Assembly (NCBI GenBank): GCA_964449385.1
Contig: CAYUYO010000003.1
Coordinates: forward strand, 483-64,482
Reading direction: 5' to 3'
DNA: 64,000 bases
Source: an uncultured Candidatus Saccharibacteria bacterium
GTDB taxonomy: Bacteria > Patescibacteriota > Minisyncoccia > Minisyncoccales > CAYUYO01
The notes under the pieces were generated by a model. That model saw nothing but the letters and a program-made list of their open reading frames with translations, searched no databases and was not told where the DNA came from. A program made the translations under genes and the position numbers. Below are positions 1,826 through 62,318 of the stretch, piece after piece; positions within the stretch are counted from its first letter, which is position 1, and every line of letters starts with the position of its first letter.

Positions 1826-3662
1826 AACAGAAATTGAGCCGCACGAGATTCTCTTAGATAAACTTGCTCAAAAAAAAGAAGAAGAATTAGGTGTTTCAGA
1901 ACAAAAATTTGAAGTTCCCCTTCAAGAAAAAGTTTTGAAATTGTTTCTATTTTTTACTTTATTTTTAATTTTAGTTATTTTTGCCAAAACCTTTCAATTT
2001 CAAGTAGTTGAGGGCAAAAACCTTTCAGCTTTAGCTGAAAGAAATAAATTTATCATTCGTCAGATTCAAGCTGAAAGAGGAGTAATTTATGATAAAGACT
2101 TAAATCAACTGGTTTTCAATCAGCCGAGTTTTGATTTAATTTGCAGGAAAAATAATTTTTCAAAAGAAGAAGAAAAGAGAGAAGAGATTTTAAGGGAAAT
2201 TGCCGAGATTACTGGAAAAGAATTTGAGAGCTTAAAAGAAAAAATTGAAAAAAGTAAAGATTCTTTGGTAGTAATTTCAGAGAACCTTGACCATCAAACA
2301 CTAATAGTCCTTGAAACAAAAATTAAAGAACTTACCGGTTTTCAAATTGAAAACAATACGGTGAGGGATTATTTAGATGGTGCTGTTTTTTCACATTTAA
2401 TTGGTTATAAAAGAAAAACTGGGGAATTAACTGGTTTAGAAGAATTCTATAATGAAATATTAATAGAAAAACCAGGGGAAATTTTAACCGAAAGAAATGC
2501 TGAAGGAAATTTTATTTCAGAAGAAATCAGCAAAGTTCCGGAATCGGGAGATAGTCTGGTTTTATGGTTAGACTCTGGACTTCAGAAAAAAATTGAAGAG
2601 GAATTAAAAAAAAGACTAAAAGAAACCGGAGCAGAAGCAGGAACAGTAGTAGCTTTAGATCCGAAAACCGGAGGAGTTTTATCTTTAGTTAGTGTCCCAA
2701 GTTTTGACAATAATTTATTTTCTAAAGGAATGTCTGATGAAGAATGGGAGCAAATTAACAATAATCCTCTGAATCCGCTTTTTAATCAGGCTATTTCCGG
2801 AGAATATCCCACCGGTTCTAATATTAAACCTTTAACTGCTGCGGCAGCTTTAGAGGAAAAGATAATTTCTCCTGAAAAAAAGATTAATTGCTTAGGGGAA
2901 ATTAACGTTCCGGATTTTTGGAACCCGGAAAAAACTTGGGAGTATAAAGATTGGAAAGTCCACGGTTGGACAGATATGAGAAAAGCTATTGCGGAATCTT
3001 GTAATGTTTATTTTTATACAATTGGAGGAGGATATGAAGATCAGGAGGGACTAGGTCCTACCAGAATTAAAAAGTATCTTGAACTTTTCGGTTGGGGAGA
3101 AAAAACGGGAATTGACCTTCCGGGAGAAGAAAAAGGATTTATTCCCGACCCTGCTTGGAAAAAAGCAGTTAAAGGAGAGAATTGGTTAGACGGAGACACT
3201 TATCATTTATCAATTGGTCAGGGTTATCTTGGAATAACCCCTCTTCAGATGGCAACCAGTTTTGTGTCTATCGCCAATGGTGATAAATTGTTTCGTCCCC
3301 AAGTAGTAAAAGAAATCATTGATAAAGATAAAAACTTAATCAAAGAGATAAAACCTGAAATTATCAGAGAAGGATTTATTAAACCAGAGAACCTAAAAGT
3401 AGTTCGAGAAGGAATGAAGCAAGCAGTAACTAATGGTACGGCTACGGGCTGGTTGGACCAACTGAATGTTTCTGCTGCTTGTAAAACAGGAAGTGCTCAA
3501 ACCGAAAAAAAAGATATTTTGGATAATTGGATTACTGTTTTTGCTCCATATGATGAGCCTCAAATAGTTTTAACTATAATGATTAAAGATGTTAAGGAGG
3601 GTCAATCTGTAACCCAACCATTAGCTCAAAGAATTTTGGAGTGGTATTTTGCCTCAAAATAA
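1785..3662 (+). CDS. mrdA: Penicillin-binding protein 2 (elongasome transpeptidase)
   Basis: N-terminal TM, ERGVIYD dimerisation-domain motif, and transpeptidase triad SNIK (SxxK), SCN (SxN), KTGSA (KTG). Confidence 0.9.
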   Translation: MFKFHQLKVKLYSETEIEPHEILLDKLAQKKEEELGVSEQKFEVPLQEKVLKLFLFFTLFLILVIFAKTFQFQVVEGKNLSALAERNKFIIRQIQAERGVIYDKDLNQLVFNQPSFDLICRKNNFSKEEEKREEILREIAEITGKEFESLKEKIEKSKDSLVVISENLDHQTLIVLETKIKELTGFQIENNTVRDYLDGAVFSHLIGYKRKTGELTGLEEFYNEILIEKPGEILTERNAEGNFISEEISKVPESGDSLVLWLDSGLQKKIEEELKKRLKETGAEAGTVVALDPKTGGVLSLVSVPSFDNNLFSKGMSDEEWEQINNNPLNPLFNQAISGEYPTGSNIKPLTAAAALEEKIISPEKKINCLGEINVPDFWNPEKTWEYKDWKVHGWTDMRKAIAESCNVYFYTIGGGYEDQEGLGPTRIKKYLELFGWGEKTGIDLPGEEKGFIPDPAWKKAVKGENWLDGDTYHLSIGQGYLGITPLQMATSFVSIANGDKLFRPQVVKEIIDKDKNLIKEIKPEIIREGFIKPENLKVVREGMKQAVTNGTATGWLDQLNVSAACKTGSAQTEKKDILDNWITVFAPYDEPQIVLTIMIKDVKEGQSVTQPLAQRILEWYFASK

Positions 3663-7589: not shown

Positions 7590-9160
7590 TTTTTGCTTTA
7601 AGTTTTTTTTGGCTTATTCGAGAAACAAAAGCAATTTTATTTTGGCTTTATCTTTGGCAACTAAAAGAATACCGCGTTCCTAGACTTTTAGCTCATTTTC
7701 AAACAGCTAAAGGAAAAGAACTTTTATTGAGTAAACTTATTTATTTAAAATTTTTTTTAGTTCTTGTTATTTTAAGTTCTTTTATATCTGGATTTTTTGA
7801 AAATATTCCAGAATTCCTGACAAGGCCCTCCTTTCTTCTTTTATATTTCGTTATTATTTTTGGAATTTTATTTTTTCTATATGTTGCTGAATCATTAAAA
7901 GCGTTGAAAGATTTTTTTGGGAAAAAACTAAAAGTTCCTATTTTAACTAAAAAAATTCTTTGTTTAATTCTAACTGGTTTGATAATAGAAATTTTGTTTC
8001 TTTTTATTCTTTTTAAGGGAATGATTTTTGTTTACCAAATGAATGTAGTATATATGTATCCCAAACTAATAATTGGTGATTCGTTTTATCCGCTTGGACT
8101 TTTAGTTTTTGATATTTTAACCCCATTGGTTGTTTCGATTATTGTTTTTCTTTTTCAGCCATTAGCAATTTTGTGGAGAAACCAAATTATTAAAAAAGCT
8201 AAGAAAAAGCGAGAAAAATTTAAAAATTTATTAGTAATCGGTATTACTGGGAGCTATGGCAAAACATCAACCAAGGAATTTTTAGCTACAATTTTGTCTG
8301 AAAAATTCAAAGTTTTGAAAACTAAAGAACATCAGAATACTGAAGTTGGCGTGCCTCAATGTATTTTGAATGATTTGAAACCCGAACACGAAATTTTTAT
8401 TTGCGAAATGGGAGCTTATAAAAGAGGAGAAATTAAGCTACTTTGCGATATTACTAAGCCTAAAATTGGCATTTTGACCGGGATAAACGAACAACATTTA
8501 GCTATCTTTGGTTCTCAGGAGAATATTATTAAAGGAAAGTATGAATTAATAGAAAGCTTACCTGAAGACGGGATAGCCTTTTTCAATGAAAAGGATAAAT
8601 ATTGTGTAGATCTTTATAAAAAAACAAAAATTAAGAAATTTCTTTACGGTCAAGAAACTGTTCAAAAAGGAGAAGAAAATATTTTGGGAGCTATGGCCGT
8701 TGCTCAAAAATTGGGAATGAGCCAGGAAGAAATTTCCAAATCCTGCGAAAAAATTAAAAATAAATTTGGAGGAATACAATTTAAAAATGGAATAAATGAA
8801 TTAAATATTCTTGATGCTACTTATTCGGCAAATCCTAATAGCGTAATTGCTCATTTAGAATACATAAAGACTTGGCCGGGAAAGAAAGTAATTATTATGC
8901 CCTGTTTAATAGAATTAGGCAGCACTTCTAAAGAAATTCATCAAAGAATAGGAAAGAAAATTGCTGAAGTTTGTGATTTAGCTATTATTATCACTAAAGA
9001 TAGATTTGAAGAGATTAAAAAAGAGGCAGGTAAGAAAGTAATTTTTTTGGAAAACTCAAAAGAAATTTTTGAAAAAATTAAAAGTTTTTGCCAAAAAGGG
9101 GATATAATAATTTTGGAAAGCCGGGTACCAGGTCAATTAGTTAAACAATTATTAAAATGA
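7586..9160 (+). CDS. murF: Mur ligase family protein, MurF-like, with ~210-aa polytopic membrane N-terminus
   Basis: Mur ligase P-loop GITGSYGKTSTKE at about aa 220, followed by central and C-terminal Mur ligase domains. The first ~210 aa are hydrophobic TM segments in place of the usual soluble N-domain. Confidence 0.7.
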   Translation: MIFALSFFWLIRETKAILFWLYLWQLKEYRVPRLLAHFQTAKGKELLLSKLIYLKFFLVLVILSSFISGFFENIPEFLTRPSFLLLYFVIIFGILFFLYVAESLKALKDFFGKKLKVPILTKKILCLILTGLIIEILFLFILFKGMIFVYQMNVVYMYPKLIIGDSFYPLGLLVFDILTPLVVSIIVFLFQPLAILWRNQIIKKAKKKREKFKNLLVIGITGSYGKTSTKEFLATILSEKFKVLKTKEHQNTEVGVPQCILNDLKPEHEIFICEMGAYKRGEIKLLCDITKPKIGILTGINEQHLAIFGSQENIIKGKYELIESLPEDGIAFFNEKDKYCVDLYKKTKIKKFLYGQETVQKGEENILGAMAVAQKLGMSQEEISKSCEKIKNKFGGIQFKNGINELNILDATYSANPNSVIAHLEYIKTWPGKKVIIMPCLIELGSTSKEIHQRIGKKIAEVCDLAIIITKDRFEEIKKEAGKKVIFLENSKEIFEKIKSFCQKGDIIILESRVPGQLVKQLLK

Positions 9161-24546: not shown

Positions 24547-25503
24547 TTATTCTTTAAGATTTTTGCCGCTATGGTATTGACGATGAATATCACGAAGACG
24601 TTTGTTTGTTACATGAGTATATATTTGGGTTGTAATAATACTTCTGTGGCCTAAAAATTCCTGGATACTTCGTAGATCAACGCCTTGAGTTAGTAAATCG
24701 GTTGCCATTGAATGCCTTAATGTATGAGGGGTTGTAAATACAGGAACGCCTGCTGAGATTGCATATTTTTTGACAATTCTTTCTATAGAACGCGATGTTA
24801 GGCGAGCATCCGCATCTTTTCTAGCTCTGTAATGAATGAATAAGGCCTTATCTTTATCTTTACGGGTTTTTAAATATTGTTTGATCCAAGACAAAGCTCT
24901 TTCAGAAAAATAAACAGTTCTAGGGTGACTTCCTTTACCAATAATCCCAAGTTCTAAATCTTTTTTGTTTTCTATATTAGTAAATTGTTCTTTATTGAGA
25001 GCAACTAATTCAGCAACTCTTAATCCGGTTGAGAAGAGAGATTCCAAAATAGCTCTATCTCTTAAGCCTTTTTGAATTTTAGTATTGGGGGCTAATAAAA
25101 GTTTCTCAATTTGATCTAAATTTAGGAATTTTACAGTTTTTTCCGCTTTAGCGTCTTTTGGAAGAGTTATTTTGTCTGCGGGGAGTGATATTAGGTCTTT
25201 GGCAGTAAAATAGCTCAAAAGGGCTCTCAGGGCGATTAAATAGTAGTTCTGGGTTGTCTTCTTTAAGGAATGACCCCTTTGGTCTTGAAAACGGCTTAAA
25301 AACAATCTATAAGCCCAAATATCTTCTGCGGCAAGTTCATGTGGTAGGAGATATTCTTTTTTATTTTTTTTTAGCCAGAAAACAAATTTAGCGAGGTAGC
25401 GCTGGTAATTCTTTTGAGTATTATCTGATAAACCTTTTTCAACTTCACAATAATCTAAAAAATCTGGGATATGTTTGATGATGCTTTTATCAGATTTTTT
25501 CAT
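24547..25503 (-). CDS. xerC: Tyrosine recombinase, XerC/XerD-like
   Basis: N-terminal SAM-like core-binding domain. Catalytic residues are in TGLRVAELVAL, HTLRHSMATDL and LGHRSIITTQIYTHV. Confidence 0.9.
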   Translation of the reverse strand: MKKSDKSIIKHIPDFLDYCEVEKGLSDNTQKNYQRYLAKFVFWLKKNKKEYLLPHELAAEDIWAYRLFLSRFQDQRGHSLKKTTQNYYLIALRALLSYFTAKDLISLPADKITLPKDAKAEKTVKFLNLDQIEKLLLAPNTKIQKGLRDRAILESLFSTGLRVAELVALNKEQFTNIENKKDLELGIIGKGSHPRTVYFSERALSWIKQYLKTRKDKDKALFIHYRARKDADARLTSRSIERIVKKYAISAGVPVFTTPHTLRHSMATDLLTQGVDLRSIQEFLGHRSIITTQIYTHVTNKRLRDIHRQYHSGKNLKE

Positions 25504-25683
25504 ATTTATAGGGAAGTGGTTAAAACCTCCTTTTGTTTTAGATATAAAGTGACGCTTTACCTATATTGTCCGACCTATTATATCTTAATAATAAACAGTC
25601 TAAAAGACTATGTCAAGAGATAAAATTATATTCCCCCGTCGATTAAACAGTCCTGTGGATTAAGCGGTAAAAAGGAGGAGTTT

Positions 25684-48988: not shown

Positions 48989-49339
48989 TTAGAAAATTTT
49001 AGTTCCTGGTGGTACTTCTTCGTCTGGTTCTAAAATTACTGGTCGACCTTCAACACTTGCTGCTAAAAGCATACCTTGGCTTTTAATACCTTTCAAAATT
49101 TTTGGTTCTAAATTCATCACTACTACAATTTCTCTTCCAATTAAATTCTCTGGTTGATAAAATTTGCTGATTCCAGCTACTAATTCTCTTTTTTCTTCAC
49201 CTAAATCAACTTTTAATCTTAAAAGCTTATTAGATCCTTTTATCTTCTCTGCTTCAATTACTTTTCCGATTCTTAAATCAATTTTTTGAAACTCTTCAAA
49301 ATTAATCATATGTTTTATCCTATCAAAAAATCGCTCCAT
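48989..49339 (-). CDS. tRNA-binding (CsaA/Trbp111-like OB-fold) protein
   Basis: FQKIDLRIGKVIEAEKI...KLLRLKVDLGEE...SQGMLLAA. The start could be the internal ATG at 49309. Confidence 0.8.
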   Translation of the reverse strand: MERFFDRIKHMINFEEFQKIDLRIGKVIEAEKIKGSNKLLRLKVDLGEEKRELVAGISKFYQPENLIGREIVVVMNLEPKILKGIKSQGMLLAASVEGRPVILEPDEEVPPGTKIF

Positions 49340-49380
49340 TAGCGATTCTTTAGTCTTTTAAAAAATTATTCTATTATTAT

Positions 49381-52937: not shown

Positions 52938-52980
52938 ATTTTTTATTAATTAATTATTATTTTGTTTTATTTATTCTACC

Positions 52981-53007
52981 AAAAAACCGCCATCTTGGCG
53001 ATTTTTT
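52981..53007 (-). terminator. Repeat-family terminator copy E1, with T-tract running into TGGTAGAAT
   Basis: Plus strand reads AAAAAACCGCCATCTTGGCGATTTTTT and is symmetric, so it is bidirectional. On the minus strand an extended -10 TGGTAGAAT (52973-52981) follows directly. Confidence 0.7.
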
Positions 53008-53092
53008 CTCAGTTTTAATTATTTAAGTAGTTTTATTGGTGTTTAATCGACGCGTCTCGGTCAAGTTTTTTTAAGTTAGTTAAAGTAAGATA

Positions 53093-55218: not shown

Positions 55219-55674
55219 TTAATCAATCTCAAATTCTATTTTATCTCCAATGTTTAAACCAATTTCTTTTGAAATACCTCCGTTTATTTCCAAAACATAT
55301 TTTGCGTTTTTCTCGGGATTTATGTTCGGGCAAAAATCTTCTTTGCAAGATTGAGTATTTTTACTGATATAAACAACTTCTTTGTTTTTATTGATCCAAA
55401 TTATATCTAAAGGAATCAAAGTATTTTTCATCCAAAAAGGATATTCTCCTTCGTCTTTAAAAATAAAAAGCATGCCTTTATCTGAATCTAACTTTTCTCT
55501 AAACATCAAACCCCGGGTTTGTTCTTGAGTGGTTATTGCCAATTCAACAGTAAAACAACTATCTTTAAAACAAACTTGGCTTTGATTTTTTGGATCGAAA
55601 GAAAATAAAATTATTATGAATATCAAGAATAAAATTACAGATAAAAAAATGGTTAATAAGAACTTTTTTTTCAT
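55219..55674 (-). CDS. DUF192-family protein
   Basis: RGLMFREKL..GMLFIF......FWMKNTLIPLDIIWI. Confidence 0.8.
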   Translation of the reverse strand: MKKKFLLTIFLSVILFLIFIIILFSFDPKNQSQVCFKDSCFTVELAITTQEQTRGLMFREKLDSDKGMLFIFKDEGEYPFWMKNTLIPLDIIWINKNKEVVYISKNTQSCKEDFCPNINPEKNAKYVLEINGGISKEIGLNIGDKIEFEID

Positions 55675-55689
55675 TAAAATTATCTTACC

Positions 55690-55716
55690 AAAAAACCGCC
55701 GAAATGGCGATTTTTT
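55690..55716 (-). terminator. Repeat-family terminator copy E2, followed by TGGTAAGAT
   Basis: AAAAAACCGCCGAAATGGCGATTTTTT. The -10 at 55682-55687 lies 7 nt before the DUF192 ATG (55674). Confidence 0.7.
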
Positions 55717-55807
55717 ATCGATACTCCGAGGAACGGATGATGTTAAAACCTGTTTTATATAAGAAAAATCACATTACTTGAGAGATGATTTTCTATTTAA
55801 AATTATT

Positions 55808-55996: not shown

Positions 55997-56042
55997 AATA
56001 TTATTTATTTAAAACTTTTATAGACCTTTATCTTATTCTACC

Positions 56043-56068
56043 AAAAAACCGCCTGAAAGAATAGGCGG
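56043..56068 (-). terminator. Repeat-family terminator copy E3, followed by TGGTAGAAT
   Basis: CCGCCT (56049-54) / AGGCGG (63-68) with an A/T run. Extended -10 at 56035-56043. Confidence 0.65.
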
Positions 56069-56125
56069 AAATTAGTTGGCATCCTCAGTTTAAAACCCAT
56101 ATTTTAATGGGAAATCTGGTTATTC

Positions 56126-56268
56126 TTAAACTGTCTTGGCAACATACGGCTTTATTTTATTCCAAGGAGCATATTTTGATTTATACCACCTTGATCAACT
56201 GTTTTTTCTCCTGTTAAAATCTTTTCTGTTAAACCCCACGATTTTTTCATTATTGCTATATGTTCCAT
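56126..56268 (-). pseudogene. Frameshifted 5' fragment of an ASCH-domain gene
   Basis: Hand translation gives MEHIAIMKKSWGLTEKILTGEKTV, then a frame loss. Shifting the reading frame by one base restores SRWYKSKYAPWNKIK, the usual continuation in ASCH proteins as I remember them. The reading frame ends after ~45 codons where repeat copy E3 begins. Confidence 0.5.
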
Positions 56269-56618: not shown

Positions 56619-56634
56619 TTTTTAATTTTAACAT

Positions 56635-56656
56635 AAAAACCGCCGAAATGGCGATT
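56635..56656 (-). terminator. Repeat-family terminator copy E4, followed by TGTTAAAAT
   Basis: AAAAACCGCCGAAATGGCGATT. Extended -10 at 56625-56633, 6 nt before the ATG at 56618. Confidence 0.65.
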
Positions 56657-56818
56657 AATTGCGAGGGCTCAACTCTGAACAAAGTTCGATGTCCTAGACG
56701 AATATCGTTATTCGTAGACAACGATACTCTGGCGATATCTCGAAGATGAAACGCCCGCAAGATTAAACCGTAGCTTAACCTTCATTAATAGACATTTATA
56801 ATTTTATATGGAATCTTG

Positions 56819-56863
56819 GAAAAAAAGAAAAGAGCCCCCGGCGAAAAATATCACCGAAGGCTC
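56819..56863 (-). terminator. Strong intrinsic terminator of the G+C-rich 203-aa gene
   Basis: Minus strand reads GAGCCUUCGGUGAUAUUUUUCGCCGGGGGCUC followed by UUUUCUUUUUUU. Confidence 0.7.
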
Positions 56864-56899: not shown

Positions 56900-57511
56900 T
56901 CAGAACTTCCACTTCCGAGCGGACGAAACGCCCAAGACGTCGCAGCGAAAGTCATCAAAGTAGCTGCAGCTATAGAGACAGACCGAAAAGAAGTAGCCAA
57001 TAACGACGCGGCAGCTATCCGAATCCACAGATGACGTTCGAACATAAATATTTTTGAATAGGCGTTCGTTAGTGGTCAAGTAATAGCCGATGATGGTGTA
57101 AATCATCGCTTGAGCTGTGGGCACTTTGTCGTCTTCGCCGAGAAGAGCTTGCTGCTCTTCCCAGTTCTTTCCGAAAGAGTTATCCACTGGGGTCTTGCGA
57201 ATCAGCTGCCAGCTTGCCTCGCTGTGTTTCTTGGAGAATGACTCCTTGTTATACCACGACTGGTCGTAGAACAACTTGGAATCCATCTTTCCGTGAATCT
57301 CAAGAATCGAGAGCGGGAAGATTGCCACCAGGATGTAAGTCTCCTTTGTTTCCTGAAGCACCGCTTCAGAAAAAGGAATCTCAGATAGAACAAGGGTTTG
57401 CTGGCGGGTCGGGTTAACTCCGAAATGCTGGATGGCCTCCTCGATGCCGAAGAAGTTCTTGCCCATGATTTCACGGGCACGCTTCTGACTGGTCGTCGAC
57501 TTAGTTTTCAT
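56900..57511 (-). CDS. Hypothetical 203-aa protein on a G+C-rich segment
   Basis: GGAGG lies 6 nt before the ATG at 57511. Overlapping spurious ORFs in other frames and on both strands show locally raised G+C. I cannot assign a family. Confidence 0.7.
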   Translation of the reverse strand: MKTKSTTSQKRAREIMGKNFFGIEEAIQHFGVNPTRQQTLVLSEIPFSEAVLQETKETYILVAIFPLSILEIHGKMDSKLFYDQSWYNKESFSKKHSEASWQLIRKTPVDNSFGKNWEEQQALLGEDDKVPTAQAMIYTIIGYYLTTNERLFKNIYVRTSSVDSDSCRVVIGYFFSVCLYSCSYFDDFRCDVLGVSSARKWKF

Positions 57512-57564
57512 GGCATACCTCCAATCTTTATTTCCGATTCGTTCGGATTTACGTCTTGTCTCTT

Positions 57565-57621
57565 TATGAGACGAGCATTTTAGAAATCAGTTTAACTGAC
57601 GTCCAAAATGCTCATCTCATA
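57565..57621 (-). promoter_or_regulatory. 17-bp stem-loop in the ~130-nt 5' leader of the 203-aa gene
   Basis: Plus-strand arms TATGAGACGAGCATTTT (57565-81) and AAAATGCTCATCTCATA (57605-21) pair with one G-U. An inner TCAGT/ACTGA stem is present. Candidate promoters are TGTTATAAT (57649-57) and TTGACT-17-TGTAAT (57663-91). Confidence 0.5.
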
Positions 57622-57745
57622 GTGTTCTGAACCATATTTAAAAGAACTATTATAACACTGTTATTACAACAAATTGTTAAATAAAAGTCAAGATTAAAAA
57701 TCAAATTTAAATTCACTAGCTTAATTATTCTATCATTTACTATAT

Positions 57746-58123: not shown

Positions 58124-58159
58124 AATTTTGTTTAGTTAATTATTTTATCTTATTCTATC

Positions 58160-58182
58160 AAAAAACCGCCTTCTTGGCGATT
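58160..58182 (-). terminator. Repeat-family terminator copy E5, followed by TGATAGAAT
   Basis: AAAAAACCGCCTTCTTGGCGATT. Extended -10 at 58152-58160. Confidence 0.65.
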
Positions 58183-58372
58183 GATTGAGGCGTCTCGATT
58201 TCTCGAAAGGCTCACAAAACTGCTTTGCCCCAGTCTAAAACCAAGGGTTTGAGGGTAATTTTGAGTATTTTAAGGCGTTGTTTCATAACGTCTTCCGGTC
58301 ATGGTTATTTTAACACAAAATGAGACAAATGAGTCAGTGCTTAAGAATACTTCAGTAGAATTGATCCATAAA

Positions 58373-59504: not shown

Positions 59505-59640
59505 AATTTTGTAATATTTTTAGATAAAATGAGAGTACTAGCATCCTCAGTCTAGTACTGGGGTTTTAAGAGGAATTTAGGCGGTTTGAGGTGTATCTTA
59601 CTGACGCGTTTCGGTCGGGGCGTTTTTAATATTATACTTA

Positions 59641-59817
59641 TTATCTGCCTAAAAATTGAAAGGCTTGGTAAACTAAAAAGGCCGGCCAAACCAAGGCTTT
59701 TAAAAATCCGATAACTCCCATATAGAATGTTGTGGCGTTACCGATAAAATAGACGGCCGCACCAATTATCCCTAAACCATAAACAGCTGACCCGCCATGA
59801 CGAATATGTTCTTTCAT
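59641..59817 (-). CDS. 58-aa two-TM membrane protein (below the ORF-track cutoff)
   Basis: Hand translation: MKEHIRHGGSAVYGLGIIGAAVYFIGNATTFYMGVIGFLKALVWPAFLVYQAFQFLGR. It has its own family promoter (TAGTATAAT, 59856-64) and a terminator downstream. Confidence 0.55.
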   Translation of the reverse strand: MKEHIRHGGSAVYGLGIIGAAVYFIGNATTFYMGVIGFLKALVWPAFLVYQAFQFLGR

Positions 59818-59863
59818 ATTTTTTTATAGTTTTATTAATTATTAACCTTTACTCTATTATACT

Positions 59864-59889
59864 AAAAAACCACCCTTTTTAAAAGGTGG
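59864..59889 (-). terminator. Repeat-family terminator copy E7 (variant), followed by TAGTATAAT
   Basis: AAAAAACCACCCTTTTTAAAAGGTGG. Confidence 0.6.
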
Positions 59890-60030
59890 AGTATAATACC
59901 CATATAAATTAACAGGAGTGATAAACTCTAATATGCTGCGGGGACTCTATTCGAACCACAGCTTCATTTTATATTCAAAACGCTGTATTTTCCAGTTCGA
60001 ATCTTAGACTGATATCTCATTCAATAACCC

Positions 60031-60846
60031 TTATGATTTCCGATTAAACGCGAATATGGCCGCAGAAATCATAACTGCAGAAAAAACAATAAGAAATAAA
60101 GCATTAATGTGAATCGGATATAAAACAATGCTCTTTATAATTTCCGGAGGAATTTGAGTATTAAGGATGATTTGCCTAAAAGCGTCTACGCCATAGGTTA
60201 AAGGATTAATTTTGGAAATAATTGTCATCCATGTCGGCACCGCAGTCAGTGGGAAAAATGCTCCCGAAAGGAAAAACATAGGGAAAATAAGTACCTGCAT
60301 TAAGATCCCGAAGCTCTCGGTTGTCTTCATGAGGGAAGATATAAGAAGCCCCATGCCGGATATTGCAAAAGACAAAAGAAGCATGAAGAGGAAAAGCTCC
60401 GGGATGATAGTAAAATGAATGCTTATACCAATAAGGGGAGCGAGAATTAACAATATCAGCCCCTGAAGAGCGGCAATGGTGGTAGCTCCCAATGTTTTAC
60501 CAATAGCAATAGAAGTTCGCGATACCGGCGCCACAAGAATCTCTTTTAAAAACCCGAATTCTCTATCCCAAACCGTGGAAACAGTTGAGAAAAATGCTAC
60601 TCCCATTATACTCATTGCAATAATACCAGGATACATAAATTGGATGAAATCTATGCCGAAATTCCCTTGAGAGAGCGTTTGCCTAAGTCCCACGCCAAAA
60701 ATAAAGAGAAACATTAACGGTTGGAAAAGTGTTGAAACAATTCGCGTCTTATCTCGTGTGTAGCGAATTATTTCCCTCTGCCAAATTGTGAATATTGCTT
60801 GAAAAAAATACATAATTTCAATATTAATGTCTTCGCATTCGCGCAC
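60031..60846 (-). CDS. ABC-2-type transporter permease
   Basis: Six TM segments and the ABC-2 pattern (IWQREIIRYTRDK, WMTIISKINPLTY). The start may be the internal ATG at 60813. Confidence 0.85.
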   Translation of the reverse strand: MRECEDINIEIMYFFQAIFTIWQREIIRYTRDKTRIVSTLFQPLMFLFIFGVGLRQTLSQGNFGIDFIQFMYPGIIAMSIMGVAFFSTVSTVWDREFGFLKEILVAPVSRTSIAIGKTLGATTIAALQGLILLILAPLIGISIHFTIIPELFLFMLLLSFAISGMGLLISSLMKTTESFGILMQVLIFPMFFLSGAFFPLTAVPTWMTIISKINPLTYGVDAFRQIILNTQIPPEIIKSIVLYPIHINALFLIVFSAVMISAAIFAFNRKS

Positions 60847-61786
60847 GCATATGATCTTTATCAGAGGCCTCTTCTTCCCTAATTTTTCGACCAGTTAAAG
60901 AAAGAAACACATCGTCAAGCGTTGGTTTCCGCAATTCAATAGAGTCAATCTTTGTGTCAAGTTCATTAAAAAGCCGCGGCAAAAATTTTTCTCCCTCTGC
61001 AACTTCCAACTGAAGAACGCCATTTTCTTCTTTTACTTCTTTATCGTAACGCTGCTCCAATTCTTTTTTGAGGTTATCTTTTTCTGCGCTTGTCATTCGA
61101 ATAACATCTCCGCCGACCATCTTTTTAAGCTGAAGCGGCGAATCAAGCGCAACTATCTTGCCGTTATCAATAATAGCGATGCTATCGCAATATTCGGCTT
61201 CATTCATATAATGGGTGGTCATAAAAATTGTCATTGACCGTTCTTTTTTTAATTTCAAGATGTAATCCCAAAGGTGGACTCTAGTCTGCGGGTCAAGGCC
61301 CAAAGTCGGCTCATCTAAAAAAAGCACCTGCGGATAATGAATAAGTCCTCTGGCTATCTCAAGCCGGCGCTTCATCCCTCCGGAAAAAGTTCTAATAATG
61401 CTTTTCCTGCGGTCCCAAAGGTCAACCAATCGCAAAACTTCCTCTATTCGCTTTTTGTATTCTGTTTTTGGCACCCTGTAAAGCCTTGCGTGAAAACGAA
61501 GATTTTCTTCTGCTGTTAGGCGGTCATCCAATGAAGGGTCTTGGAAAACGAGGCCGATGGACTTCCTTACTTCATCTCTTTGTGAGAGAATATTAAAATT
61601 ATTAATTATAGCTCCGCCTTCTGTCGGTATCAAAAGAGTTGAAAGCATATTAATGGTAGTGGACTTACCGGCGCCATTGGGTCCAAGAAAACCGAAAATT
61701 TGTCCCCTCTCCACTCCAAAGGATATATGGTCAACGGCCGTAAAACCGTTGAATTTTTTGGTTAAATTCTCAACCTGAATTATCAT
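60824..61786 (-). CDS. ABC transporter ATP-binding protein (DrrA/CcmA-like)
   Basis: Walker A GPNGAGKST, signature FSGGMKRRL, Walker B LFLDEPT. Confidence 0.95.
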   Translation of the reverse strand: MIIQVENLTKKFNGFTAVDHISFGVERGQIFGFLGPNGAGKSTTINMLSTLLIPTEGGAIINNFNILSQRDEVRKSIGLVFQDPSLDDRLTAEENLRFHARLYRVPKTEYKKRIEEVLRLVDLWDRRKSIIRTFSGGMKRRLEIARGLIHYPQVLFLDEPTLGLDPQTRVHLWDYILKLKKERSMTIFMTTHYMNEAEYCDSIAIIDNGKIVALDSPLQLKKMVGGDVIRMTSAEKDNLKKELEQRYDKEVKEENGVLQLEVAEGEKFLPRLFNELDTKIDSIELRKPTLDDVFLSLTGRKIREEEASDKDHMRARMRRH

Positions 61787-61795
61787 AAACTCTTT

Positions 61796-62044
61796 TTATT
61801 TATTGGTCTTTTTAATAATCTCACTGATAACTTTCAGTTTATCGGCCAAATGAGATGCAATTTTTTCCAAATTTTCAAGTTTGGAAAAAGCCAGCATATC
61901 GTTGCCAAAACCAAAAACCAATAGTTTATCTCCCCTTTCAAGCTTCATCTTTTGGCGCGCCTCAACCGGCACCACAACCTGTCCCTTCTCTCCAAGAGTG
62001 GTTGTTCCGTAAAAAGACCTATTCTTCTTATTTTTTTTAATCAT
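61796..62044 (-). CDS. AbrB/MazE/SpoVT-family DNA-binding protein
   Basis: GQVVVPVEARQKMKLERGDKLLVF swapped-hairpin motif. Start moved to the ATG at 62044 because the promoter lies inside the longer track ORF. Confidence 0.72.
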   Translation of the reverse strand: MIKKNKKNRSFYGTTTLGEKGQVVVPVEARQKMKLERGDKLLVFGFGNDMLAFSKLENLEKIASHLADKLKVISEIIKKTNK

Positions 62045-62089
62045 ATGTTTATAAATAAATCCTAAAAGTAGGAAATGTATGATGTTAAC

Positions 62090-62118
62090 ATTGTAACAAA
62101 ACATAAACTACCTGTCAA
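62090..62118 (-). promoter_or_regulatory. Promoter of the abrB-like/ABC transporter operon
   Basis: Minus strand reads TTGACA (62118-13), 17-nt spacer, TACAAT (62095-90). Confidence 0.55.
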
Positions 62119-62149: not shown

Positions 62150-62174
62150 AAAAAAAACCGCCCAAATGGCGATT
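62150..62174 (-). terminator. Repeat-family terminator copy E8
   Basis: AAAAAAAACCGCCCAAATGGCGATT. Confidence 0.65.
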
Positions 62175-62318
62175 CTTTGGAGTTTCTCAGTCCCGAATAA
62201 AGTTCAATATCCTAGACGGGTATGGGTCTTGGACGTCTTAAAGCCGTTGCAAAATTAGCTTCAAAATAGGCCTCTCGGTCGCTTAAGCTAAACAAGTGTA
62301 ATCCTAGTATGTTATTTC

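Follow-up and report, generated by a model that had tools for sequence, protein, structure and literature searches.

A modular intergenic repeat of CPR/Parcubacteria-type bacteria and its possible role at the junctions of exchangeable gene units

The window analysed here, a single stretch of 64,000 nucleotides, is AT-rich (~30% G+C), and its proteins find their nearest named relatives in Candidatus Nealsonbacteria and other Parcubacteria. Small genes lie on its minus strand from 50 to 64 kb, and among these are three intergenic stretches, E4, E8 and E7, that a preliminary description had grouped as one subfamily of a candidate structured RNA. E4 is flanked on one side by a G+C-rich ORF of 203 aa and on the other by a MazG-like gene (start 56618), and E8 separates a DUF5666 gene from an AbrB-like/ABC-transporter operon. 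The E4 and E8 strings that had been quoted are found on the minus strand as given, and the elevated G+C content of E4 (41% at 56650-56799 versus ~30% for the window), the strong terminator upstream of it and its hairpin CGAAUA-ACGA-UAUUCG are all present (Table 1). The two stretches share their core without gaps, with 73% identity over 78 nt (56635-56712 versus 62153-62230), an alignment that constitutes repeat family D5 of the window. Conservation beyond chance was borne out as well: the 23-mer GTCTAGGAYATYGAACTTTRTTC occurs in the window only at 56677-56699 and 62195-62217, and none of 100 shuffles yielded any match.

The cargo of the unit headed by E8 has a G+C content of ~40%. Its AbrB/MazE-like ORF is labelled from a Pfam match, and the ABC ATPase and ABC-2 permease from a reading of their translations and from the annotation, ABC2_membrane, that this gene has in locus L005. 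The 5' end of E8 is truncated or diverged and carries no recognisable tRNA relic. E7 does not belong with E4 and E8: it is a different module of 79 nt that has in common with them only an 18-nt motif of tRNA T-arm/acceptor type. The compensating change that had been described for E8 in the GAAC-UUU-GUUC hairpin proved to be a one-sided G to A substitution that opens the closing pair; a C to U substitution in the same hairpin converts C-G to U-G, and across 26 copies of the repeat described below this helix shows no both-sided change.

Table 1. Features of the E4 to E8 region, with positions in the window.
Feature	Position	Strand	Basis
Strong intrinsic terminator of the upstream 203-aa gene	56832-56863	-	13-bp stem, 8 GC pairs
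E4-specific 5' part with three hairpins: a (56759-56782), b (56732-56758), c (56700-56729)	56700-56782	-	fold z -3.78
Family-matching part of E4, comprising core, variable spacer and terminator hairpin	56638-56713	-	nhmmer profile positions 76-151, E=8e-15
Terminator hairpin (56638-56656) followed by extended -10 TGTTAAAAT (56625-56633)	56619-56656	-	terminator scan and sequence
E8, nearly full-length type-A copy (core 62195-62217, terminator 62156-62174)	62156-62290	-	nhmmer positions 17-151, E=2e-35
Promoter TTGACA-17-TACAAT for the AbrB-like/ABC operon, after the E8 terminator	62090-62118	-	11/12 match, with TG
Cargo of the E8-headed unit: AbrB/MazE-like protein, ABC ATPase, ABC-2 permease	60031-62104	-	ORFs
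E7-like module ending in tRNA-Gln 3'-end relic GGTTCGAATAGAGTCCCCGCAGCA (59934-59957), closing the E8 unit	59935-60013	-	nhmmer E=7.5e-24
Portable unit: leader with terminator and promoter, 58-aa membrane-protein gene, X module (59537-59619)	59537-59934	-	~96% to L028
X module, then type-B H1 hairpin fragment (58186-58215) and terminator/promoter	58225-58303	-	nhmmer E=8.3e-15
Partial X module or relic closing the E4-MazG unit	56077-56137	-	nhmmer E=3.2e-5
Relic AGGTTTTAACATCATCC... with truncated element start (..GAGTATCGA), directly before terminator/promoter	55717-55753	-	by-eye comparison with L020/L023 relics

Homologues also exist outside this locus, so that on this half the proposal passes the check set for it in the preliminary description: ~30 distinct copies were found in Patescibacteria contigs, gathered by scans with the core pattern and by an nhmmer profile built from the copies themselves. 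The pattern identified 5 genuine loci and 1 chance locus among species-representative genomes, and 20 contigs in metagenomes; the genomes with matches are MAGs labelled Saccharibacteria or Patescibacteria, plus one labelled Humimicrobiaceae. The profile added copies that the pattern had missed, often for a total of 2-3 per contig, and within the window it matches just E8 (positions 17-151) and the 3' half of E4 (76-151). Because retrieval used the core pattern, part of the core's apparent constancy comes from this selection; it varies by ~10% in copies that only the profile picked up. Taken together with the anatomy given below, these matches make the E4/E8 stretch one copy of a modular repeat, apparently undescribed, of ultra-small CPR/Parcubacteria-type bacteria. 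A full-text literature search for the core strings, together with keyword searches, found no description of the element.

Copies are ~150-160 nt long and are dispersed among unrelated gene contexts, always in the orientation of the flanking genes. Their order of parts is a tRNA 3' end, an H1 module, H2, the core, ~20 variable nt, a terminator and a promoter. The 5' edge is an intact tRNA-Gln in five loci (L015, L017, L025, L026, L030), an intact tRNA-Asn in L011, and elsewhere a T-arm/acceptor relic ending ...CAGCA. The H1-bearing variable module distinguishes two subtypes, A and B, whose sequences there are unrelated; in type A, H2 is the palindrome ACGGGTCTAGG-ACGT-CCTAGACCCGT, and the family core reads GTACCCGTCTAGGACATCGAACTTTRTTCGGG. 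In L015 a tRNA-T-arm-like relic after the core has expanded into a (GTCCTA)n microsatellite, GTCCTAGTCCTAGTCCTAGTCCTAG (3333-3360), of which L017 and L022 hold a single unit.

At the 3' end, a terminator of the form AATCGCC-loop-GGCGG-T run abuts an extended -10 sequence, TGnTAnAAT, with an ATG 6-9 nt past the hexamer, and this arrangement recurs across copies. The terminator helix has both-sided changes in 5 of its 7 pairs. Intrinsic terminators are seen at 56638-56656 in E4 (from the scan) and at 62156-62174 in E8 (read from the sequence), and the terminator/promoter module is found without the element at other intergenic sites of the window (families D1 and D2). At five minus-strand positions (49315-49347, 52952-53010, 55661-55719, 56010-56068 and 58131-58189) the sequence AATCGCC-loop-GGCGG-TTTTTT-GGTAGAAT fuses an intrinsic terminator to an extended -10. 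The MazG-like ATG lies 6 nt after its -10 hexamer, which implies a leaderless mRNA, and recurrence of the module with its start codon at 6-9 nt implies that mRNAs of this lineage are leaderless as a rule.

A terminator just upstream of a start codon invites comparison with a cis-regulatory 5' leader, a riboswitch or attenuator that would use this terminator as its expression platform. An alternative helix between the H2 3' arm and the core (70.6% of cells paired) and a weak, sub-threshold Rfam match to Trp_leader (E 3.5) also point that way. However, the alternative helix shows no both-sided change, and the genes downstream are unrelated (MazG, AbrB, Nudix, M24, HD, ArsR and Band7). Moreover, with an extended -10 after the terminator and an ATG 6-9 nt later, the element would lie outside the downstream mRNA and could have no riboswitch or leader role; we regard this reading as the least credible of those weighed here.

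The absence of the element from Rfam, as first described, was confirmed at both gathering and permissive thresholds. Searches of the window, 12 loci and a canonical copy against Rfam 15 returned at the gathering threshold only rRNA, tRNA and one unrelated LOOT RNA (RF03000, 93 bits, at L015 11027-11144 on the minus strand), and all permissive matches on the element had E >2. The further proposal, a stand-alone structured sRNA of ~150 nt built on the 70-nt core, was not supported: the family fold is weak and the distribution is insertion-like. With RNAalifold on 26 copies only the 5-bp core hairpin is retained (-2.45 kcal/mol, covariation term -0.09), with no compensatory pair. Folding is not strand-specific across the family (mean z -1.45 sense, -1.78 antisense); in type-A copies sense z is near 0 and the antisense strand gives the better fold, and E8, at z -0.59, does not exceed shuffled sequence. 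A conserved outer helix that would close a multi-branch fold, proposed from L023, is not retained in other copies. A small ORF through the core (RLGHRTLF) was likewise rejected, because an in-frame TAG interrupts its frame in type-A sequences.

A broader RNA reading, in which the element is a genuine structured ncRNA that forms a tRNA trailer or the 3' tail of the upstream gene and ends at the intrinsic terminator, draws on a wider set of observations. Such an RNA could serve as an sRNA, bind a protein, or signal processing or stability. Every copy is oriented with transcription and has the terminator at its end, and some directly follow tRNA genes, so that co-transcription is likely. Among the 26 copies, 7 of the 11 H2 pairs show both-sided changes, and L013 has two clean compensatory pairs, but just 72% of H2 cells are paired. 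Type-B copies fold well (z -3.5 for L023), against the near-zero values of type A. To these we must add the presence of the element in some genomes and its absence in others after the same tRNA-Gln and at orthologous loci, described below, which speak against a constrained RNA. On balance we consider this reading unlikely, if still a serious competitor.

E4 is the exception in RNA structure and an unusual member of the family: the profile matches no more of it than the 3' 76 nt (56638-56713), and its hairpins a, b and c sit where other copies have the relic, H1 and H2 modules. This E4-specific 5' part is found in this species and L032 only. Its hairpins are sense-specific (z -4.46, versus -0.85 antisense) and G-U-rich, and in the single orthologue, L032, they are kept by pair-preserving or loop substitutions, a comparison of two sequences that also favours the ncRNA reading. 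These lineage-specific hairpins may have an RNA role. The TATAAA-like box from which E4 had been proposed to be transcribed on its own was not borne out as a promoter, as no minus-strand promoter of at least 9/12 was scored upstream of E4; E4 is moreover flanked by terminators on both sides, which, without a scored promoter, counts against an independent RNA. Its divergence from the L032 orthologue (89-94% identity) resembles that of third codon positions (89-91%), and the terminator stem of that orthologue is weakened.

The borders of the gene units are marked by two further modules, which both end in tRNA-3'-end-like sequence. The E7-like module, 79 nt, occurs in the window (59935-60013), twice each in L010 and L029, and in L015, and in L010, L029 and L015 it precedes a relic and element. 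The X module, 85 nt, occurs in the window at 59537-59619, 58225-58303 and 56077-56137, with a weak match at 53.0 kb, and in many other loci. X begins with a 5' GACCGAGACGCG hairpin motif, followed by a C/A-rich stretch, a T-arm-like hairpin and GAUGCCAGCA; by eye, the T-arm-like stem covaries (CUCGG/CCGAG versus UUUGG/CCAAG). It is commoner than the E4/E8 element, with 4 copies in L032, 3-4 in L019 and others in L024, L028 and elsewhere, and it gave no Rfam, ARAGORN or tmRNA match.

Arrays with E7-like or X borders were found in L010, L015, L029, L028 and the window (~55.7-62.3 kb). In the first three of these the order is [E7-like][relic][element][one gene][E7-like][relic][element]. In the window, E8, three genes and an E7-like module with its relic make up the AbrB/ABC unit, and E4 heads a MazG unit that a partial X module closes. 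Co-orientation of short gene units with variable content is a trait that these arrays have in common with integrons and CALINs. Direct repeats of the tRNA 3' portion enclose inserted DNA in L015 (tRNA-Gln, 0.75 kb, relic), and the unit with the 58-aa gene has relics at both of its borders.

The units are portable. From the relic through X, the 58-aa-gene unit of the window matches that of L028 at ~96% identity; homology breaks off at the two relics, and the sequences beyond them are unrelated. One and the same type-B element with its Band7 gene follows tRNA-Gln in L026, and in L028 follows a gene, an X module and a relic; the same ArsR-permease operon stands directly behind tRNA-Gln and a type-A element in L025, and behind tRNA-Asn and a type-B element in L011. 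Their presence is also polymorphic. Four relatives have the orthologous DUF5666 gene without the E8 element downstream of it, and the element is missing after tRNA-Gln in seven loci (four distinct tRNA-Gln flanks) with the same dnaX-229aa-tRNA-Gln synteny, where the terminator/promoter or the next gene directly follows the tRNA. Between the window and L032, which are 90-93% identical, whole units have been inserted or deleted beside junction modules, and polymorphism at this level of identity indicates recent turnover. Finally, the elements of L015 and L017 are 99% identical beside tRNA-Gln genes of ~76% identity and DnaX sequences of 71-85% identity, with an upstream spacer that cannot be aligned; such similarity of the element next to a diverged tRNA fits transfer better than constraint, and so weighs against the ncRNA reading.

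The same comparisons bear on the idea that the copies are inert by-products, either decaying duplicates of tRNAs and their flanks or old integration scars, with no mobility and no function beyond a terminator and promoter. The third-codon-like divergence of E4 and the weakened stem in L032 agree with it, as do the clearly decayed copies L032b, L010c and L016 and the want of a nearby recombinase. However, subtypes A and B co-exist within genomes and are common to several genomes, they remain near-identical across diverged genomes, and the recent turnover of units is hard to reconcile with inert remnants. We therefore judge it improbable that the family consists of scars alone.

No recombinase was found next to element copies by jackhmmer with XerD and lambda Int across 562 ORFs, nor among the recurrent Pfam families of 86 flanking ORFs; these families are housekeeping, with dnaX marking the native tRNA-Gln locus. 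The only tyrosine recombinase found lies in the window at 24550-25560 (-), 30 kb away, and carries Phage_integrase and SAM-like N-terminal domains (337 aa stop-to-stop). It is a candidate trans-acting enzyme for the junctions, or it may simply be a housekeeping Xer.

A miniature element driven by a transposase, of the MITE, REP/BOX or Correia type, would likewise be short, intergenic, multi-copy and modular, and some MITEs carry a terminator and promoter as this element does. But a search for terminal inverted repeats at the ends of the element and of units brought up only chance AT-rich pairs and the internal H2 palindrome. There was no sign of a target-site duplication, all copies point one way, and they are few (two in 64 kb). 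BLAST against phage and plasmid collections gave no match, and the core pattern in viral contigs gave two unrelated chance matches only. We consider an origin of this kind very improbable.

Similarity to tRNA beyond the relics was not significant, and only the GTTCGAATCCTAG relic of L017-type copies exceeds shuffles; the tRNA covariance model did not match the element even at E up to 10, and ARAGORN found nothing. The core and modules as degenerate tRNA-Gln copies, or as antisense to the tRNA 3' end, were rejected on the same grounds. The element is also too short for a group I intron by the usual sizes of these introns. Such introns do occur in tRNA genes of Patescibacteria (PMC13011429). In the Rfam scans none of the copies gave a match to a group I intron model.

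The reading that we prefer, and to which we give about an even chance, is that the element is the att-like junction arm of exchangeable gene units at tRNA 3' ends, serving also as a terminator and promoter insulator. A unit begins right after a tRNA 3' end, either an intact tRNA-Gln or tRNA-Asn or a relic ending ...CAGCA, and continues with the element, that is, hairpin modules, core, spacer, intrinsic terminator and an extended -10 that implies a leaderless mRNA. One to a few cargo genes follow, and the unit closes with an E7-like or X module finishing in tRNA-3'-end-like sequence. Units would be gained, lost and swapped by recombination at these tRNA-end-like repeats, whether by site-specific recombination with an enzyme encoded elsewhere or by homologous exchange between conserved junctions, and an element in place would insulate its cargo, since it ends transcription from upstream and brings a promoter. 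The comparisons show the anatomy of the units, their dispersal, their presence or absence and their portability; how they recombine, and that the core is the recognition site, is what we infer. Several observations count against this junction arm: no copy has a recombinase beside it, the relics are heterogeneous and E8 has none that is recognisable, and core invariance owes part of its appearance to retrieval. Strict co-orientation, the paired changes in H2 and the sense-only hairpins of E4 would fit an RNA function as well.

A more specific and decidedly speculative form, in which we place little confidence, is an integron-like cassette exchange of CPR/Parcubacteria anchored at tRNA 3' ends. 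Composite junctions (X/E7-like arm, tRNA-end-like core, A/B arm) would be its substrates, perhaps as folded single strands in natural transformation; a chromosomal Xer-type or other enzyme would act in trans, and each cassette would bring its own terminator and leaderless promoter. To our knowledge, no integron-like exchange system at CPR tRNA 3' ends has been described.

The arrays resemble integron arrays and CALINs in their co-oriented units of one to a few genes between conserved hairpin-containing junctions, in unit content that varies among close relatives, and in often having no integrase nearby. They differ in being anchored at tRNA-Gln or tRNA-Asn with junction ends like tRNA 3' ends, whereas integrons are anchored at attI beside intI. 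By eye, the X and E7-like modules end in GGTTC(N)AGA/GGTTCGAA rather than GTTRRRY, with no RYYYAAC/GTTRRRY pair and no single long hairpin. Each junction of the element also has a terminator and promoter, whereas integron cassettes are mostly promoterless.

In tRNA-targeting integrative elements and their integrase-less derivatives (cis-mobilizable elements, CIMEs), direct repeats of the tRNA 3' end flank the insert, an intact tRNA stands on one side and a displaced relic on the other, and elements accrete in tandem. All of these traits are shared by the units described here. In contrast, these units are very small (0.4-3 kb) and encode neither integrase nor excisionase, and the same ~150-nt arm follows both intact tRNAs and relics, the latter being heterogeneous. 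Pneumococcal BOX, enterobacterial ERIC and Neisseria Correia sequences are short modular intergenic repeats that are transcribed with their neighbours and may provide terminators or promoters. The element is similarly short, modular and intergenic with a terminator and promoter, but it has no terminal inverted repeats, a single orientation and a low copy number, and it is tied to tRNA 3' ends and unit borders. With ncRNA motifs modelled in Rfam it shares conserved non-coding sequence, an immediate intrinsic terminator and a rarity in 5' UTRs; it matches none of those models and has little conserved secondary structure. The element is no MITE and no Rfam family. In its working it would, by analogy, be nearest to integron arrays, including integrase-less attC clusters, and to integrase-less att-flanked derivatives of tRNA-targeting elements, and it appears to be a member of neither: by eye it shows no attC signature, and it lacks an integrase in cis.

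The genomes of CPR bacteria are tiny and contain few recognised mobile elements, and little is understood of how accessory genes are acquired and shuffled in them. A tRNA-anchored junction that brackets swappable units would, if true, constitute a compact mechanism of genome plasticity in the large CPR radiation. The core, X and E7-like modules would also provide a sequence handle for variable regions in metagenome-assembled genomes. For annotation the result is a warning that a conserved G+C-rich block between the genes of an AT-rich CPR genome need not be a structured RNA gene.

The neighbouring genes have peculiarities of their own. The 203-aa ORF upstream of E4 (56900-57511, -) reaches 45-51% G+C against 30% for the genome, overlaps ORFs in other frames, belongs to no Pfam family and looks atypical in its C-terminal 35 residues. 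It is 87% identical in nucleotides to its L032 orthologue, compared with 94% for its neighbours, and this faster divergence accompanies what is probably a recently acquired gene. Upstream of it (57525-57745, -) lie a CTTGAC...TATAAT promoter, a 5' UTR of ~150 nt in which a 16-bp hairpin (AUGAGAUGAGCAUUUU...AAAAUGCUCGUCUCAU) can form, and the ribosome-binding site GGAGG. This promoter and UTR, duplicated in L032 (9669-9813), may form a leader or regulatory element in their own right. Genes of an unrelated 288-aa family have a similar promoter before them in L010 (~7880-7925), L012 and L031, the site in L012 being upstream of a 178-aa ORF; homology of the 203-aa ORF to this family beside other element copies was considered, and BLASTP detected none.

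At the native tRNA-Gln locus of these Parcubacteria a conserved 229-aa protein with an N-terminal HTH always follows dnaX (L017 8993-9679, L025 862-1548, L047-L054). Its gene overlaps tRNA-Gln such that the last codons (C-G/R-V-V-stop) are the 5' end of the tRNA, and the protein has >3,000 homologues and no Pfam family. We rejected its identification as a LAGLIDADG homing endonuclease acting on a 22-bp palindrome: there was no Pfam match, a PDB sequence search was not significant, a model of pLDDT 82 had no significant Foldseek match, and the gene is a fixed partner of dnaX even in element-less genomes. In L017 (6544-8916) DnaX itself is 791 aa long, versus ~370 aa in relatives, and its halves align around an insertion of ~400 aa, which suggests, from the alignment, an intein. 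Near tRNA-Gln in L048 and L050 there is a LigD_N gene that contains an intein and a LAGLIDADG domain.
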